Shown: positions 14,046 through 55,050 of the stretch, one piece after another
How the letters are laid out: each line of letters opens with the position of its first letter
How positions within the stretch are numbered: the stretch's first letter is position 1
Made by a program: the position numbers and the translations under genes
The notes under the pieces: model-generated
Databases searched by the model: none
What the model saw: only the letters and a program-made list of their open reading frames with translations
What the model was told of the DNA's origin: nothing
Assembly: GCA_964016885.1 (NCBI GenBank)
Contig: OZ024743.1
Location: 145,762,001-145,826,000 of the forward strand
DNA from: Eledone cirrhosa
Lineage: Eukaryota
Direction of reading: 5' to 3'
DNA: 64,000 nucleotides

Positions 14046-14074
14046 GCTGGCAGGATGAATGGGAGAGGAAAGGT

Positions 14075-24154: not shown

Positions 24155-26060
24155 TAAAAGGTAAACAGAAATAACAACACAATCGGTACAGTATATGGAA
24201 GGTATATATTAGATTAACGCTTGATATAGCAGGAAGAGGGTCTTAACGTTTCGGATGCTAGTCCTTCATCAGAAGAAAGAATGAGAAATAAAATAGATTA
24301 AGGGCGGGATGGAATTGGAAAAAATGTCTTTAGATAAAAATAATAGGTCCATTCACGTTGACATCTCTTGCAAAACTATTGGTGTTGGCGTTTTGTGTAT
24401 GATTTGTTTTTTAGAAAAGTAGATGATGGCGCGCGTCTACTTGAAATGGAAAAAAACCCGTTTGGTAAAAAGTGCTATACTTGAGCACCTGCGTAAGCAT
24501 ATGTGTGTGTGTGTGTGTTATTATAGGTCCGTACGAAGCTAAGAAGAAATGTGTGTGTATATGTGAGTAAAAGAGTGTGTGCATGTAAGTACGAAGCTAT
24601 GAGCAAAGAGAAAGCGATAGGAATCTAGGGGTGTGATAATGGACGGGGGTAGTAGAGAAATTGGGGAGGTGAGTTGAGTCCAAGAGGGGAATAGGACCCA
24701 AGACGGGGAATCAGACTTTGTTCAGTCCTGGTGCGCGAGGCCTGTGATCCATGATGTAAAAGGACACCCAGGACTGAAACATGTAGGGAAGAATGACCAG
24801 GAAAACATAAATGACGGGCGACAGGAGAATCCAAACCGAGTCGTATGTCCCTCAAATGTTCGGCAAAACGATCCGCCATACGGCATCCCGTTTGTCCGAT
24901 ATATAAAGACCCGCAAAGGGAACACCGGAGGGCATAGACAACGTTGGTGGATGTGCAGGTGAAGGAATGGCAGATACGGAAAGACTCGTTAGGGCCTGTA
25001 AGAGTGGTGAGGGTGAAAAAGAAAATCCATTAAGTGTGAGAACAAGCTCAGCCAGACGGAGAAGAGTGGTAGTGCTGGGGTAAGGGGTAGGAGGTAAATC
25101 TAAAAAATGCTGGTAAGGCCGTCATCATGAGGGATGACGGTATAGAGAGAAGTGATGTCCAGGGTAAAGAAAAGGCGGGAGGGACCAGGATGGAAGGAGA
25201 AAGAGTTAAAAAGTCTAAGGGCATGAATTGTATCGTGTATGTGGGAGGGGAGATTGCCGACCAACGGGACGAGGATAGTGTCTAAATATTCAGAAATTAT
25301 CTCGGTGGGGCAGTTGCACACAGAAACGGCCAGGATTATTTTGTTTGTGTATTTTGGGAAGGAAGTAGATGGTGGGTGTGCTAAGGGTGCGTACAATAAG
25401 GTTGGTGGCTGTGGGGGTAGGTGAGAGGAGGAGATGAGCTCGTGGATGGTGGAGGGCACGAGTTGTTGGTAGCCAGGAGTGGGGTCAGAGGATAAAGGGC
25501 GGTAAAAAAGGGTATTGTGAAGCTGGTGGAGAGCCTCTGCCCTATAGAGGTCAGCGCTCCAAACCACCACAGCTCCACCATTGTCAGCGGGTTTGATGAC
25601 AATGTCATCGCGACGCCGAAAGTTAGGAAGAGCGGAGAGCTCAGTTCGCGTGATGTTAGAACGACGAGAATGCTGGTGGAAACGTAACCGATTCACAGTA
25701 CGCCGGCAAATATCGACAACGGAGTCGAGGGTGCTGAACTGGTCATAGCTCGGCGTCCAATGTGATTGCAGGCGACGGAGACGAGTGAAGTCATCCTTCT
25801 GTGTCGATGATGGCGTGTCGTGAAAAAAAGCTTTCAGCTTTAAACAACGGAAGAACCCTTCAATCTTGGCACGTGTGCGGAACTCGTCGCAGGTAGATGT
25901 GGTTGGTATAAAACGCAAACCACGGGCGAGGAGGGAGCGCTCAGCTTCGGAGAGTGGTAGGTCCTGGAGTATGGTGATTACAGTGCAGGGACGTGAGGGG
26001 GTGAAAAAGGCGTAAGCGGAGGGGTCAAGGTGGTTGGGCAAAGCGTGTGCAGATTCAGTG
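24155..26060 (-). mobile_element. Internally deleted Penelope-like element (partial RT, GIY-YIG, hammerhead-bearing terminal repeat)
   Basis: GLRFIPT, IKPADNGGAVVVW, TLDITSLYTVIP; FTCTSTNVVYALRCSLCGSLYIGQTG...RFAEH; minimal hammerhead at 24241-24276. Confidence 0.85.
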
Positions 26061-26225
26061 GCCCAGAACTATATGTCAATAATTGTCACAAGTGTAGTGT
26101 TTGTACCAGAGTTTTCAAATCGCTGGCTGGACTAAAAAGTCACACTCGTTCAGCGCATCGGTAGGAGTTCTCCTACATGGATATAAAGTAGTGGCCGTAC
26201 TCGAAAACAAGTTGGCAGCCACCAT
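26060..26225 (+). mobile_element. 3' part of the bipartite RTE-derived element
   Basis: Reverse complement of ~17855-18020. Confidence 0.85.
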
Positions 26226-26244
26226 ATATGTATGTATATATATA

Positions 26245-27775
26245 TAAAATTTGCGTGAAATGAAGAATAAGTGGTGGAATAACAAAGCCGATGAAATACA
26301 ACTTGCGTCGGATGTGAAGGACGTTAAGGCAATGTATAATCTTCTTCGTGAAGTGTATGAACCACCTACATCGCCAGTTGCGCCTCTTGGGACAAAGGAT
26401 GGCAATCAGTTCCTTAGAGATCCCAATAATATCCTGTTGAGATGGCGGGAACACTTTGACGAGCTTCTCAATAGGGATTCAGAGGTTGACGAAGAGTTTA
26501 TCAGGTCCATACCTGATAAGCCAGTAAAGGAAATCCTTGCTGAGCCTCCAACGATCGAGGAGGTTAAAAGTGCTGTCAGGAAACTCAATGGTGGGAAGTC
26601 GCCTGGATTGGATGGGCTGTATGCTGAGATCTTGAAGCACGGTTCTGGATGCCTGGAACAACAATCATGTTCCCGATGACTGGAAGGAAGCTGTGATGGT
26701 TGTTTTGTACAAGGGAATGGGAGACAGGGATAACTGCGCAAACTATCGTGGAATATCACTGTTGTCTGTTGTCGGCAAAGTTCTCTGTAGAGTTCTGTTG
26801 GACCGTTTGTTGCTCTACATTGCTGATGAAGCTCTACCAGAGTCGCAATCGGGCTTTCGGGCTGGGCGTGGCACTGTGGACATGATCTTTACAGCCAGAC
26901 AACTGCAGGAAAAGTGTGTTGAGCAGAATGTGGATCTCTACCAGGTGTTTGTTGATCTGACAAAGGCGTTTGACACGGTCAACAGAAAGGCTTTATGGGA
27001 TATCTTGAGGAAGCTGGGGTGCCCTGAGAAGTTTGTTTCCATTTTGCGTTTGTTTCATGATGACATGAAGGCATGGGTAAATGTTGGTGGAAAGCTCTCT
27101 GAGCCGGTGACGGTCGAGAATGGAGTCAAACAGGGTGACATCCCAGCTCCAACGCTCTTTGCTTTCGAACAGGCCTTCGGGAACTGCAATCATGGTATAT
27201 ATGTTCGCTATCGATCAACTGGAAAGCTGTTTAATATCAGGAGGTTCAATGCTAAGTCAAAGGTTCACTTGTCACTAATCAGGGATTTGCTTTATGCAAA
27301 TGACTGTGACCTGGTAGCGCACACTGAGATTGATATGCAGCATCTCATGGATGCATTTTCTAATGCGTGTACTGCATTTGGACTTACCATAAGCCTGAAA
27401 AAGACAGTAGCCATGTACCATCCAGCCCCTGGGAAGCCATGTTGTGAGCCCAACATCTTGGTTTATGATGAAAGGCAGTTTTGTATATCTTGGAAGCACT
27501 CTTAGTATGTCCTGCGATCTTGATGGGGAAATATCAAACAGGATACAGAAAGCCAGTGACGCTTTAGAAGGCTGAACAAGCGTCTCTGGTTTCAACACGG
27601 AATTTCGGTAAAGACAAAGCTCAAAGTGTATCATGCGTGTGTGCTCGCGGCACTTATTTATGCTTGTGAGACGTGGGTGGTCTACCGTAGACAGATGAAG
27701 CGACTTGAGAGGTTCCACCAGTACTGCTTACGCCGGATCCTCGGCATAACTTGGCAAATGTTTGTCAGTGACGTC
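26245..27775 (+). mobile_element. Decayed RTE LINE, truncated at both ends
   Basis: KSPGLDG, NYRGISLLS, DLTKAFD, GVKQGD, LLYAND, YACETW. Confidence 0.9.
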
Positions 27776-30078: not shown

Positions 30079-30724
30079 TTTAATCACTCGGTTCTGAGAT
30101 AAGAATAAGGTATAACTTCTATACGTCTTGCGTATAAAACATCTGCTGGTGAAATTATGTTGTATATAGTGCGTGCTTGACTTAGCTGGGGTTAATTAGC
30201 AGTAGCATAGCGTGATTCAAAATAGAAGTCTATATAAAGGCATATACGTTATGTTTATGTATGATAGATAGATTTGTCTCACTGTGAATGTTTTAGGCTG
30301 TATTCGCGCACGAAATTTTAATGCAAACGATCATATCTTAAAACGTTCACAGTGAGACCTATATATGTTTATTATGCATAAACTTATCGTATATGCCTTC
30401 AAATACACCTCTATTAGCTTAATAATGTCTTGTGTATGCATCTATGTGTGTATTATAGTGGCCAGCAGCAACAACACGAACCAGTCGGTAAAAGGTTGTG
30501 ATCACCACTCCCATACACAGTTCTGATTATGGTAAATATAATACAATATTTATGCATAGACTATGATTTTTGTTTGAAATGTGATACTTCATGAAATGTA
30601 AATTGACTATTAATATGGATGCTACACACACGTTCTGAAGAAGTCTGAGTGACCGAAACGTAAGTATACAAGTCGAGAAAAATATAGCTAAAATTGAACA
30701 ATGAATATTTTCCTTATTTAATAA

Positions 30725-30924: not shown

Positions 30925-32844
30925 TATTAAGAAGGAAAAAATGTGTGTAGTATTAAGAAAAGCTGTTAGCGAAAAACGCCGATACCTGAAGAAGGTAGAT
31001 GAGAGAAAAGTGCTTAATAAAAGATTCAGACGAAACCAAACATCAGTCTATAGAGATATGAAGAACAAAATAATAAGTGTCATTGAGGCCCCATCCCAGA
31101 AAGACATAGATTCCTTTTGGAGCAAAATATGGGGTGAAAAGAAGAATTTCAACCAAGATGCAGTGTGGCTAGGAGAAATCCGAAAGAACTATTGCTCCTA
31201 CACTACAACAAAAACATACGACATAAGTGAGGGTACCCTTGAGACTGTGATAGGAAAACTCCAAGATAAGAAAACACCAGGAAGAGACATGATTGTCGGC
31301 TACTGGTACAAAAAACTGATATTCTATCGGAGGTATCTTACTGACCTCTACCAACAAGTTCTTAAGGGAGACACACTTATACCAGAATGGTTGACATTCG
31401 CACAAACATTACTGGTCCCAAGAACAAAGACACCCACTAGGCAAAAAACTACCGACCCATTGCATGCCAGAACCTGATGTATAAGATGTATACAGCCTGC
31501 CTGAACCTATTCCTCCAAGATCACTGTGAAAATAATAACATCATCACAGATAAACAAGCAGCTGGAAAGAAAGGCTTTGGGGATGTGCTGAACAACTCCT
31601 AATCAACAAAACTGCGATGTCAGAGGTGCGACAACTTAGGAGGAATATGGCTACAGTCTGGCTGGACTACAGGAAAGCTTTCGATTCTGTTCCCCACTCT
31701 TGGATGATAGAGGCCCTCCAACTTGCTAAAGTCCCAGACATTATTGTCAGAGCCATAGAGAGGCTGTCTTCTTCTTGGGCTACTATCCTAAGGTTAAAGA
31801 CAGAGAGGGAGGACTCTATTTTCCCTGATAAAATAAAATGTTGCCAGGAAGCTCCAGAGTAAGAGTAATATAGATAAGGAAAGTAGTCTATCTTGGACCA
31901 ACAACCGCTATATTGGCTCCCACTTTGAAGGATACGCTTTTGCAATCCAAGAACAGGAGATTAACACGAAATACCTGATTCACAAAAGAGATAGGGATGC
32001 AGGCAAAACACCTAGATGTGATAACAAGTGCAGACTCTGCAGAACTAACATTGAGGATATCACCCATGTCATCAACAGCTGTCCAAAGATGTCATCGCGG
32101 TACTATCTACCTATGAGGCATGATGTAGTGGCCAAAACACTGTACAATGCAGTCCGTAAAAAAGATAGCCCCGATAATAAACACATTAAAAGCTACAGCA
32201 ATGTGGAAGACATTCACGTACATAATATGAAAGAGTACTGGTGGAATGTTCCAGTAAAAAAAAACAATAAAATGCAGGCATAACAGACCAGATATTATGA
32301 TATGGGACAGGGAGAAGAAAGCATGCAGAGTAATAGGAATTAGCTGCCCAGCGGATGCTAATTTAATATCAAAGATTAGCGAAAAGGAGAATATTTATGC
32401 AGAACTGATTGGAAATCTGCAGATACTCCACCCTGATTACACCTTCAAATTTATGCCTGTGATTATTGGGGCACTGGGGTATGTTAGTAACTGCCTCAAT
32501 ACAAATCTTGAGAAGCTAGGCTTTACAAGAACAGAAAGAACACAACTAGTTAGGAAATTACAAGTACAATCCATTAATGGAACAGTAAAAATATGTAAAA
32601 CATTCCAAAAATGTTGCATCTAATAACTGCATATACACATGCACAGATACAAAGCATGCACACATACAACTCAAAACATACACATCCACACATACAATAA
32701 CATCCATATCTACACATGCATGCATGCATACATAATTTACCTAGTTGATGTTGTGTAAATTCCAATGAGAAAGTATTGTGTCTATGTTAGAAACCGACTC
32801 TCCCTCTATTGGTAAACATTTGTGAAATTATAAAACCAGAAGAA
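30925..32844 (+). pseudogene. R4/Dong-like RLE element, family B, 5'-truncated with ~0.9-kb internal deletion
   Basis: KTPGRD, WLDYRKAFDS, RHD, ISCPAD, GTVKICKTF; homologous to 41662-44212; ends at CATA repeats. Confidence 0.85.
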
Positions 32845-33397
32845 CATACATACGTACATACATACACGCACGCACACAAATATATACACACGCATACACT
32901 GACATACATACACTGTGATTAATTACTTTGAAGTTTTACCAACGTAACTGTGTTGTCAAAACTGTTTTGATAAGTCAATAACATTGGCGAAACTTCGAAG
33001 TAAACAGCCGTCATTAACAAGTGTGTGTGTGTGTGTATGCGTGTGTGTGTGTGTGCGTGTGCGTATGTGTGCGTAATTGTGCGTACGTGTGCGTGTCTGT
33101 GTACGTGCGGCGTGTGTGATTACGTGTTTGTATCTTTGTTTGTGTGCATGTGCTTATATTAAAGATGTCGCTCTGTTTTCCACCAAGAATAAATAATGAT
33201 ACACTAATTTCAAAAATTCAGAATTTTGTAGCCTAATAATATTTTACATGACAAACGATTGATTTGAACTGGGAATCGTTTGACGAAAAAAATAGACTAC
33301 AAGCTTCATCGGGGAATTTTGCGAAAGAAGCATTTCTCGAGCTAATGAGAATCTAGCGATGTTATATTAATACAATATTATATTTAATAAAACTCAG

Positions 33398-33588
33398 GGC
33401 GGTGGATTGGCAGTATTGGGAGAGGGTCGGACGCCATGCTTTGACGTATAGAGTTACGGCCCTTGCCATTCTGAGTTCAAATCCCGCCGAGGTTAACTTT
33501 GCCTTTCATCCTTACGGGGTCGATAAAATAAAGTACCAGTAATGCACTGGGTTATTGCTTGCCTTGTGCCTAACGTAGAAACAATTAT
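33398..33588 (+). mobile_element. Nin-domain SINE
   Basis: GGCGGTGGATTGGCAG head, GAGTTCAAATCCC B box, Nin core, AGAAACAATTAT tail. Confidence 0.8.
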
Positions 33589-33619
33589 ATTTAATAAAAC
33601 TGCTGACCTTGCCACGAAC

Positions 33620-33890
33620 AGAGTCCATTGACGAAAACGGCTTGGCTAATGTTGAATGCAAATCCGTTACATTGAGGACTATACATTATGAAAACGGAAT
33701 GTGCATGTATTTAGGGCACATCTTTTGTCTGTTAGATTTGCTGCAGATCGTGTAAATCTAAAGCTGGACTTAAAAGTCACCTAGGAGATCATGAACGGAT
33801 GTTTGGAGTTTGACACAGCTGATGGGGGCGCATAGGGAGACGGCAATCGTCTGCAAAAATGAAGCAGTTACCATGTATGTATGTATGTAT
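33620..33890 (+). mobile_element. 3' fragment of zinc-finger RTE with (TATG)n tail
   Basis: ICCRSCKSKAGLKSHL; ends CAGTTACCATGTATGTATG. Confidence 0.6.
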
Positions 33891-33892
33891 AG

Positions 33893-34236
33893 AAATAGCC
33901 AGACTGGATACCCGATCGCGCGGTTAAACCACTGGGAGTGAAGGACCCCTAGCCTTTGTCAGGGCATTCTTCTAGAAGGTAACTCAGGAAACTGGGATAA
34001 CTCCGACATAAAACCTGCGGCTCAGTAATTACCGATGATGTTGATCTTTTCATCTTTTCGGGTTATATAGCTACTGTCGCTCAGAGAGTGGGATTGGCTC
34101 TGTGCACAGTCTTTCCTCACATTAAAATAAATCTTCATGCACAGGCATTGCACGATAGAATTAATTAATAATGGTATATCGTGCACTGGCCATACACGAT
34201 AACGAGGTGGCAGCCATCATCATGTATGTATGTATG
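33893..34236 (+). mobile_element. Variant bipartite RTE-derived element with (TATG)n tail
   Basis: Shares GACCCCTAGCCTTTGTC, GATGTTGA, GAGAGTGGGA, CACAGGCATTGC and GGCAGCCA blocks with the main family. Confidence 0.7.
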
Positions 34237-34391
34237 TTATCTCTTTCTCTTAATTTCGAGTATATTTTTTGACCGGCCACCTTCCTGGTGGCAAGGTTGT
34301 AAAAGAAAAGAAATTGTCATCCCTTGTATCGCAAGAATGTTTTGCAAATTTTGAAGGTGCTAACTATCGCAGCCATTTGTAGACTATGAAT
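34237..34391 (-). mobile_element. Extreme 3' end of RLE family A
   Basis: Reverse complement of ~40855-41009. Confidence 0.85.
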
Positions 34392-35114
34392 TATGAGGCA
34401 TGATGTAGTGGCCAAAACACTGTACAATGCAGTCCGTAAAAAAGAAAGGCCCGATAATAAACGCATTAAAAGCTACAGCAATGTGGAAGACATACATATA
34501 CATAATATGAAAGAGTATTGGTGGAATGTTCCAGTAAAAACCCCAATAAAATGCAGGCATAACAGGCCAGATATTATGATAAGCGAAAAGAAGGCATGCA
34601 CAGTAGTGCAAGTTAGCTGCCGAGTTGATGTCAATATAATATCAAACATTAGCGAAACGGAGAATATCTATGCACAACTAATAAAAAATCTGCAGATACT
34701 CCACCCTGACTATACCTTCAGATTCCTGTGATTATTGGGGCACTGGAATATGTTAGTAACTGCCTCAATACAAATCTTGAGAAGCTGGGCTTCACAGGAA
34801 CAGAAAGAACACAACTAGTTAGGAAATTACAAGTACAATCCATTAATGGAACAGTAAAAATATGTAAAACATTCCAAAATTGTTGCATCTAATAACTGCA
34901 TATACACATGTACAGATACAAAGCGTATACACATGCACACATACAACTCAAAACACACACATCCACACATACAATAACATCCATATCTACACATGCATGC
35001 ATACATAATCTACCTAGTTGATGTGTAAATTCAAATGAAAGAGTCTTGTGTCTATGTTAGAAACCGACTCTCTCTCTATTGATAAACATTTGTGAAATTA
35101 TAAAACCAGAAGAA
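34392..35114 (+). mobile_element. 3' part of RLE family B
   Basis: MRHDVVAKTL...NRPDIMI; 3'UTR matches 32623-32844; followed by (CATA)n. Confidence 0.85.
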
Positions 35115-35140
35115 CATACATACATACATACATACATACA

Positions 35141-35828
35141 GGCTGCAAACTATGCCAAGAGTATTGCAATCGCTTGTCAGATTCAGATCTGTGACGCTCG
35201 GATATGGCTTTTCAAGCCTGCTAGAGACTTGCACTCCTTCATACACTGACGACAACTATGGATCTCCCTGGCTTGAGGTCCTGCATCAGCATCAGGGTGC
35301 CCGTGAACCCTCAAAACACCGTGGCGATCATAGTCCACTGGTTCTCTTTGAACATGGCTGCGACTGTGACTCCTGAGACCAGATTTGCTCAAGCAAATTT
35401 TTCCACACTCAGGGCACTTCAATTCAATGGAGACACCGTTCGTTTCGAGAGATACACCAGGGCATTGCTTACGCACATCCTGTTTGATCTTCTCGTGCTC
35501 TATGCGTCTGTCCTCAAAATTATGGACCCCATCATTCATCTTTCCACGCCAAGTTTCCCTTTCAAGAGCTTCTATCTCCCAGTCAACCATCATCAAACCA
35601 GTTTTTTTCAACGCGTCCTTTACACAATCCTTGAATCGGAGCTTTGGCTTGTGAGGTGGTCTCTTACCCTCACAAAACTTGCCATACAAGTGTTGTATTG
35701 AGATTCGATCATCCTCCATTCTACGCCGTTGGTGGATGATACTCTCAATGCTCCGACACTCACTTCTCTCAAGGACCTCAACATCATTCACATGCATCTG
35801 CCACTTGATACCGAGCATCTTTCTGAGA
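35141..35828 (-). mobile_element. 5'-truncated zinc-finger RTE with (TATG)n at both ends
   Basis: GKRPPHKPKLRFKD, CPECGKICLSKSGLRSHSRSH, CRQCMKECKSLAGLKSH. Confidence 0.85.
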
Positions 35829-35842
35829 CATACATACATACA

Positions 35843-36375
35843 TGGTGGCTGCCAACTCGTTTTCGAGTACGGCCACTACTTTATATCCATGTAGGAGAAC
35901 CCCTACTGATGCGCTGAACGAGTGGTGACTTTTTAGTCCAGCCAGCGACTTGAAAACTCTGGTACAAACACTACACCTGTGACAATTATTGACACATAGT
36001 GCTGGGCCCATGGTACCATGTGACGACAAGTGCAGAGAGATCTCCAGATATAAAGCAATGCCTGTGCCGTGAAGCTTTTATAGTGAGCAAAGGCACTGCA
36101 CAAAGCCAGTCCCACTCTCTTAACCAAGATGATATTTACCAAAAAGAAGAACAAGTCAACATCATTGGATACCATCAGGGTTGCAGGTGTTATATCAGAG
36201 TTTTCCTTCTCCTAGAATTCTGCCTTGACAAAGGCTAAGGGGTCATCTCTCCCAGTGATTTTGGATGGCCATTGATTCTTAAGAGCTCCTTTGCCCCTCG
36301 ACAGGTTTTGTTTTTAGTCCTGCAGGATGTCCAAAGTCACCCTCCTCACCAAGAAACTTTGGTGGGGTTGCCAGT
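35843..36375 (-). mobile_element. Longest copy (~530 bp) of the bipartite RTE-derived non-autonomous element
   Basis: RTE 5'UTR motif CTAGGAGAAGGAAAACTCTGA joined to the last zinc finger (CSVCTRVFKSLAGLKSH) and 3'UTR with TATG tail. Confidence 0.85.
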
Positions 36376-37062
36376 TTAGTCGCCAACGACCCGACCATGA
36401 GACAGTTTGTACTGGGATACATGTTACCAGTAGCACATACATATATATACATACATACATACATACACATACACACATATAGACACATACATACATACAT
36501 ATAGACACACATATATACACATATACACATATATATATATAGTATTAAGGATACTATTTATGGTTATGCATATACTAAAACGTGTGTGTATTCATATACA
36601 CACTAGTATTTCAGTATGCATATGTAGATGTACATTTTTAACTTAATTGTTTAAGCGTCAGTCATACAAAAGTGAGTTACAAACGAAACGAAATTTAATT
36701 TCGTTTGTTTTTAAAACCTTTTATAGTTATATATATATATTATACCCTAAATAGTGAAAGACAGTAATTTATTACTATCTTGTTACCAGTAAGATAAATA
36801 GCTCAATGTAACAACATCAGTTGTTTTACAGAGCAGTTATATAGAGATCACATGAAACAAAGTTCTGCCCAAACCACCCATCCGCCCACAACCATGGAGG
36901 AAATGTGGTAAGGAACCAGGTGGACCATAACGCACCAAAGTACTCAATACTTAGGGTAGTAGAGTGGGTGATAGGAACGAGTGGGACCCCGACGGCTGAG
37001 CTCAAGCCATTTCGACGGCTAATTCTGGACTAGTCCAGAATTGGCCGTCGAAACGGCTATAT

Positions 37063-37280
37063 GTGAAGGCGTGTGGCTGAGTGGTTAGAGAATTGGATTC
37101 GCAATCGTAAGGTTGTGAGTTCGATTCCTGGACCAGGCGATGCGTTATGTCCTTGAGCAAGACACTTTATTTCACGTTGCTCCTTCTACCTGGAGTTGCG
37201 ACCCATAGATAGTATTAGCAATTGGAAAGACCAACGGAAACATTGTTCCCTCGGTCTGATTTGACGAAAGTCGATCGTTC
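37063..37280 (+). mobile_element. tRNA-derived CORE-like SINE
   Basis: TGGCTGAGTGG A box, GTTCGATTCC B box; homologous to 826-1080. Confidence 0.75.
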
Positions 37281-37729
37281 CCATATATATGTATATGTGT
37301 GTGTGTATATATGTATATATATGTATACGTACATATATATATGCATATATATATATATATATATGCATATATGTACGTATATATATACATATATGCGTGC
37401 ATGTATATATATATAGAGAGAGAGAGAGATTGCATGAAGCAGGGTTCTGTTTGGGTCGTTTATCTGCTTGCAATTGTTTCTTCCAAACCGAGGTTTGGAG
37501 TCTTCGGAGCAATTATTCAGTGATTTTTAACATACTTGACCTCCTTTTCAACACAAGAGACATATAGAAACATATGTATATATTGACCCACAGTGGGTTG
37601 ACATCCATTATAATAATATAGCATACATACATACATACATACATACATACATACATACATACATACATACATACATACATACATACAAACACGCACGCAC
37701 ATAAATGAAGATTGCAGCGGCTTCACAGA

Positions 37730-38578
37730 CGAATGCCGTCTCTTATTAATTTTTCATTGTCATCCCATCTGCGTCCATGACTTCGTAGATTACTTTGTAG
37801 ACCAGCTGCAGATCTGCAGGGGACAGAAGAGAGTTGTGCTTTCCATAGGATTGGTGAGATCATTTTGTGGGATACAATCTTTATGCACCACCATGTGTAT
37901 TTTTAGTCCGGAACTAGTTCTACACACTTTGTTACATATCACGCACGTTGTTTCACCAGGTCTTTGTTGAGTGGTGTTGGGGTGGTTGTTCTTTCATGTG
38001 ACTTCAGGTGATTAACATAACCAGCTTTTGAGAGGAGTACACGCTGACAGAATTTGTACGTCCAAATACTGATGACTTCATCAAGAGTGTGAGCACAGCC
38101 CTTCCGGAGCTGACGCTTCAGTTGTTTATGATCTATGCGACATTCTTCAAAAGTGTTGCAGCTCAGCCCTTTATGCACTTTCTCCACTCAGCCCTATTTA
38201 GAGCTATCTCCTCCCAGTTGTCTATATCAAATGCCAGCTCTTTGAGATTGTTCTTGGTGCTGTCCTTGTACGTCATTTTCGCTTTGTGTTGAGGCCTTTT
38301 TCCAAGATGGAGCCTACCGTAAAAACAGTTGCTTCGGGATCCTGCTTTCTTTCATGCGGACGATATGTCCTGTCCAACGCATTTGAGATGTTACTAGAGA
38401 CTCAATGCTTGGACATTCCGCTTTGATAAGGACATGGATGTCAGGAGTTCTGTCTTGCCACTTGATGTTGAATATGGGCCTTAAACGTTTCTGCTGAAAA
38501 CGCTCAAGCAATTTGGTGTGTTTGCGGAATAGCGTACAGGTTTCGGAGGAGTATAAAAGAGTAGACAGAACACATTAT
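37730..38578 (-). mobile_element. Decayed zinc-finger RTE 3' portion
   Basis: LERFQQKRLR, MRWTGHIVRM, FCQRVLLSKAGYVNHLKSH. Confidence 0.8.
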
Positions 38579-38610
38579 CTATACACACACACACACCATA
38601 CATACATACA

Positions 38611-39292
38611 TGGTGGCTGTCAACTCGTTTTCGAGTACGGCCACTACTTTATATCCATGTAGGAGAAACCCTACCGATGCGCTGAACGAGTGTGACTTTT
38701 TAGTCCAGCCAGCGACTTGAAAACTCTGGTACTTGTGACAATTATTGACACATAGTGCTGGGCCCATGGTACCATGTGACGACAAGTGCAGAGAGATCTC
38801 CAGATATAAAGCAATGCCTGTGGCGTGAAGCTTTTATAGTGAGCAAAGGCACTGCACAATACATACATATATACATACACATGGTGGCTGCCAACTCGTT
38901 TTCGAGTACGGCCACTACTTTATATCCATGTAGGAGAACCCCTACCGATGCGCTGAACGAATGTGACTTTTTAGTCCAGCCAGCGACTTGAAAACTCTGG
39001 CACAAAGACTACACTTGTGACCATTATTGACACATAGTGCAGGGCCCATGGTACCATGTGACGACAAGTGCAGAGAGATCTCCAGATATAAAGCAATGCC
39101 TGTGCCGTGAAGCTTTTATAGTGAGCAAAGGCACTGCACAAAGCCAGTCCCACTCTCTTAACCAAGATGATATTTACCAAAAAGAAAAACAAGTCAACAT
39201 CATTGGATACCATCAGGGTTGCAGGTGTTATATCAGAGTTTTCCTTCTCCTAGAATTCTGCCTTGACAAAGGCTAAGGGGTCATCTCTCCCA
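38611..39292 (-). mobile_element. Two tandem 5'-truncated bipartite elements separated by CATA repeats (38611-38858, 38882-39292)
   Basis: Direct homology to 35843-36375. Confidence 0.85.
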
Positions 39293-39380
39293 AATACATA
39301 CACATACACACATACATACATACATACATACATACATACATACATACATACATACATACATACATACATACATACATACA

Positions 39381-41009
39381 TTATCTCCCATCTTTTCTTT
39401 GTTGATGACCTGAAGTTGTATGGGCCAAATATCAATGACATCAAGAAACAATTGGACCTCATTACACAATTTTCAACAGACATCAAAATGAAATTTGGTG
39501 AGTCCAAGTGTGCATATTTGGCAGTAAAACGTGGAAGAGCTGTGGCCTCCTCTAGAAATCTAGAGATGAACGGCCTGACAATACAACCTCTACAGTCAGG
39601 TGACAACTACAGATATCTTGGACAGGATGAGAATGTCAGATATGATGGACCCATAAATAAGGAGAGAACCAGAACTGAATACCTCAGAAGAGTAAAGAAA
39701 ATATGGTCATCAGAACTGTCAGCGTACAACAAATACATTGCCCACAATACTTATGCTGTGCCAATTCTAACGCTAACATTTGGCCTGCTGAACTGGTCAT
39801 TGCAAGAACTAAGTGAGATGGATGTTAGAGCTCGCAAACTTCTCAGTGTTACTGGGAACTTTAACATCAATGGTGATGTGGATAGGCTACATTTCTCACG
39901 CAAGGAAGGTGGCCGGGGTCTAAAATCCATATTAACATCATATGAGACCCGGATAGTAACACTGAAGCAACATTTGCAACAGAGGAAAAAGGTTGGCAAG
40001 CATCTTGCCCAGGTTTATGAGCATGAAAAAAAATATATCATTAGAATAGCGACTGATCTGGAGGAGAGATATGGAATAAAGCCTGATATAAATGTCTCAC
40101 CCAGAGAAATCGGAAGATCCTATTCAATGTTCAAATAAGATGAAAAATTGACCAATTTACAGAAAAAGTTGTGCATGGATACTTGAGACGTAAAACACAG
40201 ACCATAGAGGGAATAAACCACTCAAAAAGCCTGGCATGCAGTTCCGACAGGTTTATGGCGTCACACCTTGAGGGATATGTCTATGCAATACAGGAACAAG
40301 AACTCCCTACCAAATATCTGCTTCACAAAAGGGGAGGGTCATCAGCTGACAATAAATGTAGGCTATGTAAAACAAAGATCGAGGATGTAAGCCACATTGT
40401 TGCCAGCTGCGAAAGAATGTCGTCTTGCTACTACCTCCCTACGAGACACGACGTGATAGTTAGAACCATCTGGAACGCACTTCGGAAAACAAAATTAACA
40501 ACAAACGAGGAAGAATATATTGAGACAGATGGCCCTAAGGAATACTAGTGGAACCTGAAAATAAAAACTGCCACCAAATTAAAGCTCAACCGGCCTGATA
40601 TTGTTGTTTGGGACCACACATTGAAAACGTGTTCTGTTGTGGATATCAGCTGCCCACTTGATGTAAATGTTGTCAGAAAAATACAGGAGAAGGAGGACAT
40701 CTACGGACCATTGATGAGGAGTTTACAAATCCAGTATCCAAGATACACCTTTAGCTTCATACCCATCATTATTGGAGCTACGTGTTATATACCAACCCGC
40801 TTGGACCAAAGTATGACTGAACTTGGATTTGCGGACAAAGAGCGCAGCTCCCTAATTCATATTCTACAAATGGCTGCGATAGCTGGCACCTTCAAAATTT
40901 GCAAAACATTCTTGCGATTCAAGGGATGACAATTTCTTTTCTTTTACAACCTTGCCACCAGGAAGGTGGCCGGTCAAAAAAATATACTCGAAATTAAGAG
41001 AAAGAGATA
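39381..41009 (+). pseudogene. RLE family A, 5'-truncated, (CATA)n on both sides
   Basis: HLFFVDDLKLY, GGRGL, CRLC...HIVASC, RHD, ISCPLD. Confidence 0.9.
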
Positions 41010-41057
41010 ACATACATACATACATACATACATACATACATACATACATACATACAT

Positions 41058-41607
41058 GGTGGCTGCCAACTCGTTTTCGAGTACGGCCACTACTTTATAT
41101 CCATGTAGGAGAACCGCTACCGATGCACTGAACGAGTGTGACTTTTTAGTCCAGCCAGCGACATGAACACACTGGTACAAACACTACACATGTGACAATT
41201 ATTGACACATAGTGCTGGGCCCATGGTGCCATGTGACGACAAGTGCAGAGAGATCTCCAGATATAAAGCAATGCCTGTGCCGTGAAGCTTTTATAGTGAG
41301 CAAAGGCACTGCACAAAGCCAGTCCCACTCTCTTAACCAAGATGATATTTACCAAAAAGAAGAACAAGTCAACATCATTGGATACCATCAGGGTTGCAGG
41401 TGTTATATCAGAGTTTTCCTTCTCCTAGAATTCTGCCTTGACAAAGGCTAAGGGGTCATCTCTCCCGGTGATTTTGGATGGCCATTGACTCTTAAGAGCT
41501 CCTTTGCCCTTTGACAGGTTTTGTTTTTAGTCTTGCAGGATGTCCAAAGTCACCCTCCTCACCAAGAAACCTTGGTGGGGTTGCCAGTTTAGTCGCCAAC
41601 GACCATG
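41058..41607 (-). mobile_element. Bipartite RTE-derived element between two (CATA)n tracts
   Basis: Direct homology to 35843-36375. Confidence 0.85.
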
Positions 41608-41661
41608 ATACATACATACATACATACATACATACATACATACATACATACATACATACAT

Positions 41662-44212
41662 ACATACGAAATAAGTGAGGGTACCCTTGAGACTGTGATA
41701 GGAAAACTCCAAGATAAGAAAACACCAGGAAGAGACATGATTGTCGGCTACTGGTACAAAAAACTAATATTCTATCGGAGGTGTCTTACTGACCTCTACC
41801 AACAAGTTCTTAAGGGAGATACACTTATACCAGAATGGTTGACATTAGCACAAACATTACTGGTCCCCAAGAACAAAGACACCCACTTGGCAAAAAACTA
41901 CAGACCCATTGCATGCCAGAACCTGATGTATAAGATGTATACAGCCTGCCTGAACCTATTCCTCCAAGATCACTGTGAAAATAATAACATCATCACAGAT
42001 GAACAAGCAGCTGGAAAGAAAAGGGTTTGGGGATGTGCTGAACAACTCCTAATCGACAAAACTGCGATGTCGGAGGTGCGACAACTTAGGAGGAATATGA
42101 CTACAGTCTGGCTGGACTACAGGAAAGCTTTCGATTCTGTTCCCCACTCTTGGATGATAGAGGCCCTCCAACTTGCTAAAGTCCCAGACATTATTGTCAG
42201 AGCCATAGAGAGGCTGTCTTCTTCTTGTGCTACTATCCTAAGGTTAAAGACAGAGAGAGAGGACTCTATTTTCACTGATAAAATAAAATATTGCAGGGGT
42301 ATATTTCAGGAGGACAGTCTCTCTGTGATATTGTTCATCTTGTCATTAAACCCCTTGTCCTTTCTGCTCAAGAAATGTGAAGGATACATCATTGGCTCAC
42401 AAGAGGACAGAAATACGAACCTAACCCATAACTTCTTTGTGGACGATCTGAAACTCTATGCCAAGAACATGGATGGGATGAAGAAAAATCTTGACCTGGT
42501 TACAACGTTCTCAAAGGATATAGGAATGGAGTTTGGCCAAGATAAATGCTCATACATGACTGTAAAGTGGGGAAAAACAAGAACCCAATCTAGCAACATT
42601 GTCATCAATGGTATAACTGTTTCACCGATATCTGATGAGGACTGCTACAGATACCTGGGGATAGATGAGAACATATCCTATAATGGTATCTGTAATAAAG
42701 AATGCGTAACCAGGGAATACTACACCCGATTAAGAAAGATTTGGTCATCGGAACTCTCTGCGCAAAACAAAACAGTGGCTCACAATGTGTTTGCTGTGCC
42801 TGTCCTAACACCAACGTTTGAAATACTCAATTGGACGCTAGACGAAATCCAAGCAGTTGATGTTGGAACTCGAAAAATACTGAACAACACCGGAAACTTC
42901 CACATCAACAGTGACATGGACCGCCTTTACTTGAAACATAAGCAGGGAGGCAGAGGCCTAACATCAGTCCAGACAACATTTGAATGTCGCATCATATCTC
43001 TCCGACAACATCTACGAACCTCGAAGCGTAGGAGCCCGCTTCTCGAGCAAGTCTATCTGCATGAAACAGATAAGATCGTAAGAGTTGGGAAGGAACTCCT
43101 CGAGAGATATTCCCTGTGTGATAATCAAAAACTCACACCCAGGGATGTCGCTCAGCAGTATCGCAGTGAATCCATGGATGAAAAACTGCATGCCTATCAG
43201 CAAAAAAATCATGCATGGATATGTTGCCAGGAAGCTCCAGAGTGAGAGTAATATAGATAAGGAAAGTAGTCTATCTTGGACCAACAACCACTATATTGGC
43301 TCCCACTTTGAAGGATACGCTTTTGCAATCCAAGAACAGGAGATTAGCACGAAATACCTGATTCACAAAAGAGATGGGGATGCAGGCAAAACTCCTAGAT
43401 GTGATAACAAGTGCAGACTCTGCAGAACTAACATCGAGGATATCACCCATGTCATCAGCAGCTGTCCAAAGATGTCATCGCGGTACTATCTACCTATGAG
43501 GCATGATCTAGTGGCCAAAACACTGTACAATGCAGTTCGTAAAAAAGATAGCCCCGATAATAAACACATTAAAAGCTACAACAATGTGGAAGACATCCAT
43601 GTACATAATATGAAAGAGTACTGGTGGAATGTTCCAGTAAAAACCCCAATAAAATGCAGGCATAACAGACCAGATATTATGATATGGGATAGGGAGAAGA
43701 AAGCATGTACAGTAGTGGAAATTAGCTGCCCAGCAGATGCCAATATAATATCAAAGATTAGTGAAAAGGAAAATATTTATGCAGAACTGATGAGAAATCT
43801 GCAGATACTCCACCCTGATTACACCTTCAGATTTATGCCTGTGATTATTGGGGCACTGGGATATGTTAGTAACTGCCTCAATACAAATCTTGAGAGGCTA
43901 GGCTTCACAGGAACAGAAAGAACACAATTAGTTAGGAAACTACAAGTACAATCCATTAATGGAACAGTAAAAATATGTAAAACATTCCAAAAGTTTTGCA
44001 TCTAATAACTGCATATACACATGTACAGATACAAAGCATATACACATGCACACATACAACTCAAAACATACACATCCACATCTACACATGCATACATAAT
44101 CTACCTAGTTGATGTTGTGTAAATTCCATTGAGAGAGTCTTGTGTCTATGTTAGAAACCGACTCTCTCTCTATTGGGAAAAAATTTGTGAAATTATAAAA
44201 CCAGAAGAACAT
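41662..44212 (+). pseudogene. RLE family B, 5'-truncated, single frameshift at A-run ~43202-43208
   Basis: NYRPIAC, GIFQEDSLS, FFVDDLKLY, CRLC...HVISSC, RPDIMIWD...EISCP. Confidence 0.9.
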
Positions 44213-44478
44213 AAGAGAGAGAGAGAGAGAGACGGGTAGTAGGCGGGGAAGCGATTCGTTAAGACATTCCGCTTTGAAATAGTTTCTGAAATTATTTATC
44301 TCTTTGTCAGAGTGAATATTCAGTGTTTTATTTCTCGCCCTAGCACAGCTGATACAGAAGTGTAAGTATCGGCACATGACAGCTTTAATCGGGCCATTTG
44401 TTTACAAACGAATTGAATATTAATATTAATGTTCGATATAACCCATACGTACACATGTGTATATATATGTGTTGTGTG

Positions 44479-49212: not shown

Positions 49213-49231
49213 TTGATTATATATATATATA

Positions 49232-49558
49232 TAAATGAAAACATTACAAAGGAGAATATATACTGTTAGAACATGTTTATATAAAAGCACCTACGTTCGT
49301 TTCGCCCGAAAAGGGCTTCTCAAGGGCATACAAATCTAGAGAGTGTTCGGTATGGGACTGTGGCAATAACAGCATGCCTGTTTGAACTAAGAATGAACTT
49401 TGATGTGATTATCACCTTAAAACCCCTCCTGGGTCTCGTACCGAACACTCTCTAGATTCGTATGCCCTTGAGAAGCCCTTTTCGGGCGAAACGTATGTAG
49501 GTGCTTTTGTATAAATATGTTTTAACAGTATATATTCTCCTTTGTAATCCTTTCATTT
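49232..49558. mobile_element. Inverted repeat (~120-bp arms), each arm with a U3-A8 variant hammerhead
   Basis: 49232-49352 vs 49439-49558; TTGAGAA-GCCC..GGGC-GAAAC....GTA. Confidence 0.7.
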
Positions 49559-49753
49559 GTAACCACTCTGCTTATATTCACGCCCGCTAAATATTAATGC
49601 TTCCGATATTTAACCCTGTAGACACAAGTATTGAGCACAAATGCACCAGCTTTTGGCAACTAACTATATGTATCGCTTATCCCTTTAAACCTCTACTCTC
49701 TCACGATACTAAAATGTTCTATATATATATATATCATTATTATCATTGTTTTA

Positions 49754-49944: not shown

Positions 49945-51760
49945 TCATTGTTTTACATCCATTTTCCATGCTTGCATGGGTAGGACGGGTCTTTTGCCAC
50001 ACAGCATCCCTCCACTTGTTGCGGTCTTTTATTAACTCTTCTGGGAGCTACAGCGATTTGCGTTCACTTCTCGCAACCTCAGCCTAGGTTTTCTTTGGTC
50101 TCCTACTACAGCTTACTACCACTGAGATTCCTTAGCACTTCTTCACCCAGCAATCATCAGCTATATGCATTACATAGACATACCAATGCAGTCTTCTCTT
50201 GCACACAGCTCATCCACGCTTTGTCATTCTTGCACATTAACATTGTGCATCCATCAGAGCATGCTTGTTTCATTTCTCTCTAGCATATTCTCTACATTCC
50301 TGTCTTACTGCCATGCAATATTGCACTTTATACACAGACATCATATAACCAGCCTTTCCTTCATAGAGAGAAACCTTTTTTTTTTATCAACAGAGGTAAT
50401 AGCTCCTTGAACCTTTTCCATCCAGTTCTTGTTCTAGCTACTATGTTTTCAGTGCAACCTCCTCCAATGCTAATTAGATCACCTAGGTAGCAGAAGCTAT
50501 CAACTACTTCTATGAATTATTCAAATAAAGCTCTTCTTTCATGACATATGTGTATTTTACTAAATTCATGCAAATGTCCTCAAAGATTTGAACAACTTTG
50601 TATCAAGCAAGGCCACTTCCCCAATGGGATCAGGGTCCTGCCTTCCTTTCTCCTTACCAAAACTTTCATTTTCCCATATTTACTTTCAGTTCTGTTTCCA
50701 AAGCCGGAATTTCTTCTTTAGTTCATCTACAGATTTAACTATAAGAACTATTGTTAGCATACAGAAGTTCCCAAAGACAGCTACTTTTAAATTCCTCTTA
50801 TAGCATGGAGAACTATAATGGTTTCTTATATAGGCACAAGGCCAGCAATTTTGGAGGAGGGGAAAATCGATTAAATCGACCCCAGTGCGAGATTGGTACT
50901 TTATTTTATAGACCCTGTAACGATGAAAGGCAAAATCAAATCCCACCGAGGTTAACTTTGCCTTTCATCCTTACGGGGTCTATAAAATAAAGTACCAGTC
51001 TCGCACTGGGGTCGATTTAATCGATTTTTCCCCTCCCCCAAAATTGCTGGCCTTGTGCCTATATAAGAAACCATTATAGTTCTCCATGCTATAAGAGGAA
51101 TTTAAAAGTAGCTGTCTTTGGGAACTTCTGTATGCTAACAATAGTTCTTATAGTTAAATCTGTAGATGAACTAAAGAAGAAATTCCGGCTTTGGAAACAG
51201 AACTGAAAGTAAACATGGGAAAATGAAAGTTTTGGTAAGGAGAAAGGAAGGCAGGACCCTGATCCCATTGGGGAAGTGGCCTTGCTTGATACAAAGTTGT
51301 TCAAATCTTTGAGGACATTTGCATGAATTTAGTAAAATACACATATGTCATGAGAGAACTGTAATGAATAGAAATAAGCTGATGACTGAGCCTTGATTAA
51401 CACCTACCTGCACACTGAATTCTTCACTAAATGCATTACCTACTATCACCTTACTAACAGCTCTTCTGTACATGACTTGCACTGCTCTTACAAGCCATTC
51501 TTGAACCCCTAGTTTCTTTAGGGACCACCAGATGACAGATCATGGTACTCTGTCACAGGTCTTCTCTAGATCAATAAAAAGCTAGTAGTTGTCTCTTGTA
51601 GTTGTCTTACTAAGAATAGAGCATATATGGTACTAAAACACTTTCTAATTACGTAGTTGCTCCAAAACTCTTTCTGTCATTTTCATAACTTTGGCCATCA
51701 ATTTTATACCCCTCTTGTTGCTCCCTTCTAGAGCATGATCTTTTCCCCTTTTTTCAATAT
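49945..51760 (-). mobile_element. Decayed RTE interrupted by a SINE and an inverted duplication
   Basis: GVNQGSVIS, WELLYAN, KKFRLWKQ, FCYLGD remnants. Confidence 0.7.
50539..51353. repeat. ~400-bp near-perfect fold-back inverted duplication
   Basis: Mirror ORFs 50588-50803(+) and 51089-51304(-) differ by one residue. Confidence 0.95.
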
Positions 51761-53793: not shown

Positions 53794-54569
53794 GTTTGAC
53801 CTGTCATTTCAGTTCATTAAAAATCACACATTAACATATATTCTAATCAACTCCAAAACTAGAGCTGAATAAAGGATTAAAAGTATTAATTACTTCTTTA
53901 ACTGATGCATGCTTTAAAGGGTAAAACAATTTTATAAATGAATTGATAACCAGAGTAATGTGTGTTCATGCTTGATTTTGATTTGTTTTGGGTTATTTTT
54001 ACTATTTTCTCAACAGATGGTTGTGAAGATGTGTATGTTAGGTCTCTGTTGGTTCCAACAATGAGTGCACCAGTTGTTTGATGATTGAAACAGCCTGCAC
54101 ATGAAATTAATATGCAAGTAGCTTGTCATTCTACAGGCATATAATGTAATTCTTTAAGATATTCAACATGACACAGTGTGTGACAAGGCTGGTCCTTTGA
54201 AATACAAATACAACTCAATTTTGCCAGCTATGTGGACTGGAGCAACATCTTGCTCAAGGACACAATGACTTTACAATTGTGAATCAACCACTAAGCCATG
54301 CACTTTCACTATCAAATGAACATTAAACAACAGATTAGTTTTCAAAGGCAAAAGGGTGATATCACTAAAATATAACATCAACAAAAACAAAATATACACA
54401 AGAATAAAGCTTTGTACAGCTGAAATTTATTAGTTTTCAAATCATGGTTTATCAAACAAAAGAAATGCTTGATTGAAATTGTTTTGGTCTTGTAATAACA
54501 ATGATATATATTTAATCATTTTGTTTTGCATTGTAAAATATATACATACAGGTTAATAGTTTATATATA

Positions 54570-55050
54570 CAGTTATACTTTGGGTGGATCATGTTGCTAA
54601 TTAAAATACATACATTGAGTTTCACTTCAGTTTTTATTATTAATCAGGTAATTAATCTATCTATCAATTAGTTAATCAACCAATCAGCTATTTGTTTAAT
54701 TGTCAAAGTTCTTTCAACACTCAGTTTGTGACCTTATCAATGACATTTTACCTTCTGTGTTTCTGTCATGACTTGACTTCCACCTTACTCCTTTTTTCTC
54801 TTTATCTTTATTTGCAGTGTATACACACTGCTGACAGAATGACAAAGAGAAAAAATGAAGGTGGCAGTCAAGACAGTATAGAAAGGAAACACAGAAGGCA
54901 ATAAGTCATTGGTAAGGTCACAGTCTGTGTAATGAAAGAGCTTTGACAATTAGTTAAATAATCAATTAGTTAATGAACCAACTGATTAATAATAAAAACT
55001 GAAGTGAAACTCAACCAGTGCATATGTCTTAATTAGCAGCATAACCCTTA
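54570..55050. repeat. Diverged inverted repeat with decayed hammerhead-like arms
   Basis: TTGAGTTTCACTTCAGTTTTTATTATTAATCAG mirrored by CTGATTAATAATAAAAACTGAAGTGAAACTCAA. Confidence 0.7.

Follow-up and report, generated by a model that had tools for sequence, protein, structure and literature searches.

Families A and B, two families of single-ORF retrotransposons with a restriction-like endonuclease (RLE) in a 64,000-nucleotide stretch of the Eledone cirrhosa genome (hereafter the window), appear to belong to a branch of their own within the Dong/R4 group and likely insert CATA-strand-specifically by target-primed reverse transcription, while the RTE-type elements stacked with them are likely tenants of the TATG strand. 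We hold this reading with somewhat better than even confidence. It draws on direct observation of how A and B are oriented and flanked, of their domain layout and of their place in the tree. Flanks, polarity and tree likewise support the original prediction of a CATA-specific Dong/R4-type lineage that inserts into pre-existing arrays and gives self-renewing stacks.

The elements and arrays are listed in Table 1. Copies of A and of B are 87-97% identical within their family, and the two families gave no match to each other by blastn. Because the within-family identities overlap, they do not date the insertions relative to one another. Translations of A and B show, in one ORF and after the reverse transcriptase (RT), CX2CX8HX4C, RHD and RPD..E/D..K motifs, and the copy at 41668-44213 matched Pfam RVT_1 (E 1.7e-22). 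Both families thus combine the RT, CCHC knuckle and PD-(D/E)xK endonuclease of RLE-type (R2 group) elements, and the top sequence and fold matches of their branch are R2 proteins. Full-length relatives in the branch carry PF00078 alone or, in some, together with zf-RVT, and have no N-terminal APE endonuclease, a trait judged from these relatives as the window copies are themselves truncated. The R4/Dong clade has a Myb-like N-terminal domain without C2H2 fingers. In the A/B branch, no C2H2 motif was seen in the N-termini, structure prediction for one relative (P0002) gave an all-helical region ahead of the RT, and three confidently predicted helices at residues 25-78 have Myb-type structure neighbours (best 0.85), which we regard as a lead only.

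Table 1. Elements and repeat arrays in the window (†, array quoted in the original prediction)
Feature	Position	Strand	Remarks
Arrays around family B 2168-3688†	2152-2166; 3689-3776		Degenerate CATA upstream; (CATA)22 downstream
RLE family B copy	2168-3688	+	87% to 39443-41057
Dong-type element C, intact	4356-8146	+	1216 aa stop to stop; (AAT)n after, and upstream at 3833-3880; internal control
Dong-type element D, 5'-truncated	8168-10195	+	(AAT)n both sides; internal control
RTE-only stack (zinc-finger RTE, composite, bipartite 1)	16353-18292	-	All heads in TATG; no RLE
RLE family A copy	30930-32843	+	Internal deletion; CATA tail; no RTE partner
Zinc-finger RTE 3' remnant	33620-33872	+	C2H2 remnant in translation; possible left half-stack founder
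(TATG)n	33873-33890	+	RTE tail plus head flank of next bipartite element
5'-truncated bipartite RTE derivative, family 2	33891-34221	+	Similarity to family 1, common end
(TATG)n†	34222-34238	+	Common tail-to-tail array of bipartite 2 and family B
RLE family B copy	34239-34393	-	3' 155 nt; 97% to 40853-41025
RLE family A copy	34394-35113	+	3' 720 nt; 89% to 43495-44213
(CATA)n†	35114-35140	+	Common tail-to-tail array of family A and zinc-finger RTE
5'-truncated zinc-finger RTE	35141-35827	-	tblastn to 16353-17657 RTE; Pfam C2H2 below curated cut-off
(CATA)n	35828-35843	+	RTE head flank and bipartite tail
Bipartite family 1, nearly full length	35844-36434	-	Head in degenerate CATA/TA repeats 36435-36541
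(CATA)17	37622-37691	+	Outer array of main stack, at RTE tail
5'-truncated zinc-finger RTE	37712-38592	-	tblastn E 4e-31; head in CATA 38581-38611
Two 5'-truncated bipartite-1 copies, head-to-tail	38612-39292	-	CATA between, 38859-38880
(CATA)n†	39294-39381	+	Between heads of bipartite 1 and family B; neither's tail
RLE family B copy	39382-41009	+	5'-truncated, broken; RT end, CCHC knuckle, RHD, PD..D/E..K motifs
(CATA)12†	41010-41057	+	Common tail-to-tail array of family B and bipartite 1
5'-truncated bipartite 1	41058-41607	-	Family similarity
(CATA)15†	41608-41667	+	Between two heads (bipartite 1, family A)
RLE family A copy	41668-44213	+	5'-truncated, frameshift near 43245; RT, CCHC knuckle, RLE, 3' UTR

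All arrays quoted in the original prediction are present. As it had claimed, A and B end in CATA on their sense strand: ACATA continues that strand at all six RLE 3' ends, in a fixed phase (A-ACATA), with at least two units at five of them, and TATG follows none of the six. At the 5' ends, at least two CATA units lie within the 24 bp upstream in three of six cases, against a background of 569 of 92,324 positions (0.6%) outside the stacks (binomial p ~5e-6, treating stacked copies as independent, which they are not). The claim that truncated RLE copies have (CATA)n upstream therefore holds for these three and fails for the 30930 copy and the 34393/34394 pair. The expected fixed polarity was confirmed, with no wrong-strand case among the 21 elements (RLE and RTE-type) of the 64-kb window. 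The same repeat occurs in one orientation on both flanks of three of the six window copies, of a relative (L001) and at joints at other loci, with exceptions. Neither an empty allele nor a target-site duplication was observed at A or B. The last 6 nt of the 41608-41667 array, ACATAC, are also what family A itself has where the copy is truncated (compared with 31195-31240), and a 4-nt microhomology is plausible from the sequence at the family B 5' junction at 2168.

The two exceptions recognized at the outset are real: the copy ending at 44213 has a single ACATA unit followed by (GA)9, and the 30930 copy has no upstream array, only one ACATA about 15 nt away. Further exceptions had been missed, namely an array-less join of B(-) and A(+) copies, head to head at 34392/34393 with a 2-nt TA microhomology, a family A tail without an RTE partner (32844-32866), and RTE-type heads lying in arrays. 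We considered a family-level chimera for the B/A join and ruled it out, as loose ends there show the normal continuation of each element; according to these loose ends in the reads, the join at 34394 is locus-specific.

The RTE-type elements show the opposite strand preference. At least two TATG units were found at 11 of 15 3' ends and at 12 of 15 5' ends; two CATA units were found at none of the 15 at either end. Because the heads also lie in (TATG)n, the RTE and bipartite elements are likely tenants of TATG/CATA arrays as well. Pfam and tblastn identified RT, a C2H2 end and a 3' end shared with the bipartite derivatives. We provisionally take the zinc-finger elements to be RTEs and the 5' part of the bipartite derivatives to stem from an RTE 5' UTR; the tree rows include no RTE reference, and the window has no full-length RTE 5' UTR. 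Bipartite family 1 copies are 92-97% identical and in their 3' part match the C2H2 end of the RTE; family 2 is 70% identical to family 1 over 228 nt, and both share a GCAGCCA-ATG end. A search with Rfam at gathering thresholds gave no matches in the window.

The original prediction had the RTE clade making the landing pads. In its strict form, in which A and B depend on pads formed by RTE (TATG)n tails and are parasites of retroposon tails, we consider this unlikely. The four predicted tail-to-tail junctions between RLE and RTE-type elements do exist with their arrays, nearly all long CATA arrays in the window touch an RTE-type end, and RTEs are reported as microsatellite generators (Tay 2010, PMC2887409). 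However, if an array was founded by an RTE tail, a bare-headed RTE is expected to lie outermost on the head side, and this holds in only three of seven clusters (1698-3830, 26070-27775 and 33620-34393), among them two of the three that contain B. The head boundary of the RTE remnant in the last of these is uncertain (33620-33713) but outside any array, since 33127-33872 contains no tandem array; read depth begins near 33695. The other four clusters (16353-18292, 30930-32866, 34394-36501 and 37625-44213) have no such founder, and comprise the RTE-only stack and all three A-containing clusters, including the main stack, whose ACATA(GA)n end resembles a compound microsatellite. The 12 RTE heads that are themselves in arrays and the CTTA-flanked relatives, beside which no RTE was seen, also speak against the strict form, although a founder may be masked where an RTE head carries a target duplication. 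RTE tails would be one source of arrays and not a requirement, and the arrays may originate from RTE tails, A/B tails or ordinary microsatellites.

Public sequencing runs gave evidence on 15 of 428 joints. The raw reads were RAD-seq and contig depths were summed, so read depth was not used for junction counts; the comparison left out the family A 3' end (35107-35148), and the A tail is known from the window copies. No one record covered the stretch from end to end. The bipartite head ran into CATA in 6,836 reads of one run (agreement 0.76), and a joint from TATG to head was found in 970 reads with 20 starts. The family B end was followed by CAT in 78 contigs of run X3 (agreement 0.69) and by four CATA units in one contig of run X1. 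Truncated copies with (CATA)n ahead of them were also seen, for A at 34883 (107 reads with 5 starts) and for B at 34388 (run X4), and a joint of bipartite head, CATA and A head (36283 to 34841) had the same polarity as in the window. Two of three bipartite-to-A joints lacked an array, with one ACATA in the joint from 35986 to 34977 and none in that from 36001 to 34892, and a joint at 34965, in family A's CA-rich 3' UTR, may be an internal expansion.

These joints bear on a passive origin of the stacks, in which elements insert elsewhere with self-made tails, and deletion or unequal exchange between same-strand arrays builds polarized stacks. Tail-to-tail joints need no targeting, and elements have clearly been rearranged at 34392/34393, within the 30930 copy with its internal deletion, and at the bipartite-to-A joints that lack an array. 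Such a process gives no arrays at heads, however, and leaves unexplained the three head-to-head arrays that neither neighbour's tail accounts for and the 12 of 15 RTE heads in arrays. The bipartite head junction is, moreover, family-wide, and (CTTA)n lies upstream of the full-length relatives L001 and L004. We therefore regard passive assembly as very unlikely and retain strand-specific insertion.

The RT phylogeny is compatible with the lineage proposed at the outset. In a tree of 83 rows, selected among 120 proteins and 30 labelled loci with a 150-residue cut-off that removed L013, L029 and L043, A and B fall inside a 48-row branch of their own (support 100/99), with all 13 AAT-labelled loci in the tree and window elements C and D outside it; the tree is rooted at midpoint only and its rows include no named R4, Dong, Rex6, NeSL or HERO sequence. 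The nearest relatives outside the branch are AAT-flanked and 28S-flanked elements (30-40% identity), with R2 at 16-20%. Three loci found with the same profile (L044, L081 and L082) have a 28S-like 3' flank, which we take to be the R4 site, L081 with a 13-nt duplication. The 28S-flanked loci form a distant long branch (100/100), and neither A nor B lies in rDNA. One named protein was a close match, P0207 of Argonauta hians (53%). The idea that a Bombyx protein (P0050) is Dong itself was discarded after comparison by eye with published Dong rows. In viral contigs, none of 28 stretches from the profile search was confirmed and the family A 3'-end pattern had no match; the two loci that prokaryote genome contigs yielded belong to the 28S type and lie outside the A/B branch.

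Relatives within the branch point to a related repeat. Sense-strand (CTTA)n was found at four of eight non-coding contig ends of relatives from metagenome contigs. L001, the row nearest to A, has it at both ends, L003 at the 3' end only and L004 at the 5' end only, on the sense strand with no array at the opposite ends. The arrays of L001 and L003 are located about 1.06 kb past the ORF, at contig ends, and these are places at which assemblies break in any case. No array was seen at L002 or L005, although L002 has two CATA units about 200 nt past its ORF. Among 37 other-clade loci with a C-terminus, the first repeat was AAT in 18, none in 15 and another repeat in four, and CATA or CTTA in none. 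Judging from these flanks, the target of the branch more widely is likely (CWTA)n.

A one-base difference between close relatives (CATA versus CTTA) would also suit a model without protein specificity, in which the CAUA tail of the RNA pairs with (TATG)n wherever it is nicked or broken, by RNA-guided microhomology. The fixed A-ACATA phase is what an element-encoded tail would give, and pairing between tail and target is proposed for RTEs (PMC6007223). Nevertheless, we consider guidance by the tail without the protein improbable. The branch has a conserved N-terminal motif of its own ahead of the predicted Myb-like helices, two deep sub-branches (that of L001 and that of L003/L004) have a tetranucleotide flank, and PMC4640811 describes most RLE clades as specific for their targets.

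If insertion is indeed strand-specific, the A/B protein, with its predicted Myb-like N-terminus and RLE, would nick the TATG strand and prime on the freed 3'-OH, probably aided by pairing with the CAUA-ended RNA. The truncated cDNA would then be joined to the upstream array through a few bases of microhomology. On the other strand, RTE machinery would prime on CATA using its UAUG tail. Each insertion would split an array in two and slippage would regrow both, so that stacks may extend while polarity stays fixed.

Dong, DongAg and DongBg of the R4 clade are (TAA)n-specific (PMC3812793, PMC2887409). Like Dong, A and B have a single ORF with RT, CCHC knuckle and RLE, a microsatellite on both flanks and fixed polarity, and they probably share the broad group with the 28S rDNA-specific R4. 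Unlike Dong, their unit is CATA (or CTTA in relatives), and their target is common to a second clade on the opposite strand. All six A/B ends carry CATA, whereas the window's elements C and D have the (TAA)n of Dong proper, and the published Dong RT motifs (PMC2887409, from supplement 7) were found only in rows outside the A/B branch. PMC3812793 and PMC4640811 list other microsatellite-specific non-LTR elements, namely Waldo (ACAY), Mino (AC), Kibi/Koshi (TC/TTC) and Togen (TG)n. Waldo's ACAY includes ACAT and resembles the A/B target; Waldo, Mino, Kibi and Koshi are listed there as APE-type and Togen as NeSL-related, whereas A and B, as RLE elements that probably belong to the Dong/R4 group, would have reached a Waldo-like target independently. 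The RTE-type elements resemble those described in PMC5786205, PMC9115989 and PMC6007223 (RTEs with 3' microsatellite tails, Bov-A-type bipartite non-autonomous RTEs and octopus RTE-2_OV with a C2H2 finger) in their short tandem tail, C2H2 end and internally deleted derivatives. Published animal RTEs show one or two bases of 3' microhomology (PMC6007223), unlike the 12 of 15 heads within (TATG)n arrays here, which is near true microsatellite targeting. In Octopus vulgaris, 'Dong-R4' LINEs comprise 51 families and 92.7 Mb, with five recently active, in a paper whose main text contains neither 'target' nor 'nested' (PMC13282606). A CATA or CTTA target for Dong/R4-group elements was not found in the published literature searched, Repbase being outside that search, and CATA (with CTTA likely in a relative) is, judging from sequence, likely a new variant among the microsatellite targets of Dong-type elements.

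It is possible, though with confidence short of even, that A and B represent a widespread, undescribed (CWTA)n branch of the Dong/R4 group with a one-base CATA/CTTA switch, that the host RTE is microsatellite-specific on the opposite strand, and that mutual target-building sustains a self-renewing niche. If so, the few known sequence-specific RLE retrotransposons would be joined by a class with a new target, and TAA, CATA and CTTA would offer a natural series for asking whether the target is recognized by the N-terminus of the protein or by the tail of the RNA, a question that is open for Dong-type elements and bears on retrotransposon-based gene writers. An RTE lineage would be acting as nearly site-specific, and repeat hotspots such as CATA microsatellite clusters in large LINE-rich genomes would be products of co-targeting.

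Re-examination of the window confirmed the positions of the arrays and elements in the stacks of the original prediction, retroposons nested in CATA/TATG arrays, and the stacks are a genuine feature. The restriction-like endonuclease (RLE) families A and B, represented by three copies each, were 5'-truncated in all six cases. They had been described as ending in CATA, and all six carry A-ACATA at the sense-strand 3' end, five with at least two units. At least two CATA units were present in the upstream 24 bp of three of the six copies, against a background of 569 of 92,324 positions outside the stacks, the stacked copies not being independent. Both exceptions also held: the A copy at 44213 terminates in ACATA(GA)9, and the one at 30930, whose tail has no RTE partner, is preceded by a single ACATA about 15 nt upstream. 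Among the 15 RTE-type elements of the window, tabulated by hand, TATG adjoins the 3' end in 11 and the 5' end in 12, and two opposite-strand units were found at the ends of none. Two copies of a 262-nt stretch, made up of a bipartite end, a TATG/TA repeat and the start of a truncated RTE, lie in inverted orientation at 17759-18020 and 26060-26321 and are 96.6% identical. The copy at 17746 carries a second bipartite terminus at its end, suggesting read-through with a template switch, or local duplication.

Features of the window discussed in the text
Feature	Position	Strand	Remark
Family A copies	30930-32843; 34394-35113; 41668-44208/44213		single-ORF RLE element
Family B copies	2168-3688; 34239-34393 (-); 39382-41009		single-ORF RLE element
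Arrays between two heads	2152-2166; 39294-39381; 41608-41667		
Clusters with a bare-headed RTE outermost	1698-3830; 26070-27775; 33620-34393		
Element C	4356-8146		Dong-type, (AAT)n-flanked
Element D	8168-10195		Dong-type, (AAT)n-flanked
Two-ORF element	10625-16003	-	N-terminal endonuclease-like frame, RT, zf-RVT; stop-broken; presumably Tx1-like
Frame of 322 aa	25103-26068	-	no Pfam match; interrupted by bipartite/RTE cluster at 26070; similar, we assume, to a Penelope-type RT start
Long inverted repeats	19135-19318; 30221-30415; 49230-49561; 50534-51358; 54569-55064		probably MITEs or foldback elements; 50534-51358 is 97% self-complementary over 829 nt
tRNA-head SINE copies	826-1026; 37063-37267		82% alike; without association to CATA arrays

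Three arrays lie between two heads and therefore cannot be explained as the tail of either neighbour. At 41668, the final six bases of the array are also A's own bases at its truncation point, as expected if cDNA had annealed to the target upstream. Deletion through microhomology at some later time would look alike, yet it too presupposes an upstream array. The head-to-head arrays and this overlap thus favour a target over an element-made tail, as had been proposed, and we infer that the arrays were already present when the elements arrived. At 34392/34393, B(-) and A(+) are joined head-to-head through TA, with no array. The join is locus-specific: the two fragments, on opposite strands, meet at a 2-nt microhomology where the stack polarity reverses, with inversion, deletion or two-element twin priming as alternative origins.

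Junctions were also compared between four public sequencing runs and 33600-36446, with the family A 3' end left out. CAT follows the B end in 78 contigs of run X3, as do four units in one contig of X1. Truncated copies are preceded by (CATA)n at two points, A at 34883 (107 reads, 5 starts) and B at 34388 (run X4). A total of 6,836 reads pass from the bipartite family head into CATA, and 970, with 20 starts, cover an array-to-head joint. The joint at 34965 may be an internal expansion. Among the 15 of 428 joints listed, one runs from a bipartite head through three CATA units to an A head, and two same-polarity bipartite-to-A joints without an array are counter-evidence. Passive joining of the elements through recombination appears very improbable as an account of the stacks.

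The original prediction held that the landing pads are made by another clade. If an RTE tail had founded an array, every later insertion would be found on the tail side of that RTE, which would itself be bare-headed and outermost on the head side. This arrangement was found in three of seven clusters and fails in four. The four include the main stack (37625-44213), the stack at 16353-18292 that holds only RTE-type elements, and all copies of A. The main stack is bounded by (CATA)17 and ACATA(GA)9, the layout expected of a compound microsatellite that has been split. RTE seeding could still have occurred, because target duplication could hide the founder, and is not required; strict dependence of A and B on RTE-made pads is unlikely. 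It is safer to regard the two clades alike as tenants of the arrays, each of which renews the target.

The A/B translations contain an RT (RVT_1, E 1.7e-22), a CCHC knuckle, RHD and an RPD..E/D..K endonuclease motif. R2 proteins were the best matches to the predicted structure of the relative P0002 (mean pLDDT 85.5) and likewise the top match of the sequence profile. The P0002 N-terminus is modelled as three bundled helices; its closest feature neighbours are Myb-type (at most 0.85), which may serve as a lead only. Full-length relatives form one block at 43-55% identity, separated by a gap from the remainder at 33-41%; the sole named close protein match is from Argonauta hians, which suggests a cephalopod host. 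In an IQ-TREE phylogeny (245 columns in common with B, 83 chosen rows), A and B fell inside a 48-row branch with support of 100/99, and were not sisters within it. Elements C and D and all 13 AAT-labelled metagenome loci lay outside this branch, and published Dong RT motifs were confined to outside rows. Because the tree has a midpoint root and no named reference sequence, membership of A and B in the R4/Dong clade is only likely. The Dong lineage proper was ruled out on target (CATA, not TAA) and on tree position. C and D form a tandem in (AAT)n at 3833-10226 that adjoins the CATA stack 1698-3830; C retains an uninterrupted frame of 1216 aa, counted from stop to stop, and its tail carries the D insertion.

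A metagenome scan over 16 of 64 parts yielded 328 confirmed relatives, of which 80 were kept. The C-terminus was present at 42 loci, 37 outside the A/B branch and five inside. The first repeat 3' of the ORF was AAT in 18 of the 37, another unit in four and none in 15; inside the branch it was CTTA in two of five and none in three. L001, the nearest row to A, has (CTTA)n 225 nt 5' and 1.06 kb 3' of the ORF, and L003 has it 1.06 kb 3', but contigs break at microsatellites and these 1-kb 3' stretches may be flank. L004 has (CTTA)n about 400 nt 5' of the ORF, L002 just two CATA units about 200 nt 3', and L005 no array. (CTTA)n thus stands at four of eight non-coding contig ends of L001-L005, on the sense strand in all four, and a sense-strand CTTA array of at least three units was absent from every other locus of 82. 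CTTA units are intermixed with CATA units beside the junction in the 5' array of L004 (1-60). Elsewhere, the 3' flank is 28S rDNA-like at L044, L081 and L082, with a 13-nt duplication at L081; the L081 and L082 contigs, from assemblies labelled cyanobacterial, are likely eukaryotic contamination. The long-branch RLE element L058 has an unusual site at its 3' flank, which we take to be the end of 18S rDNA. Two AAT-branch members have (ATT)n, the reverse strand (L020), and (AAC)n (L043) at 3', possibly polarity or target switches.

Published targets are TAA for Dong elements, ACAY for Waldo and other short repeats for Mino, Kibi, Koshi and Togen (PMC3812793, PMC4640811, PMC2887409). Pairing between RTE tail and target is proposed in PMC6007223 to span from one base to several, in animals one or two, and PMC5786205 already describes bipartite RTE derivatives. 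Octopus zinc-finger RTE and Dong elements were reported without target analysis in the portions available of PMC9115989, and PMC13282606, likewise available in part, covers 51 Dong-R4 families in 92.7 Mb without the word 'target' in its main text. The accessible text of PMC7650587, PMC13586686 and PMC13580325 holds nothing further on a CATA/CTTA target. No description of a CATA- or CTTA-specific RLE element was found in the literature searched, which omitted most subscription titles; a target of this kind may already be annotated among the Repbase R4 entries, for example the coral R4-1_ADi that PMC5786205 names. A CATA target would be a new variation on the microsatellite targeting of Dong-type elements, and it probably characterises a whole branch.

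Polarity, flanks, domains and tree position are observed; the mechanism proposed in what follows is, as a whole, reasonably probable. The A/B protein would nick the TATG strand and prime there, assisted by a CAUA tail, and the RTE machinery would prime on the CATA strand through its UAUG tail. Each insertion would split the array in two, and slippage would regrow it. Guidance by the RNA tail, without protein specificity, we consider improbable. Taken together, a CWTA-specific branch and a two-clade niche whose occupants renew it for each other can be put forward only tentatively. That an RTE lineage shares the arrays from the opposite strand is the more unusual side of the finding.
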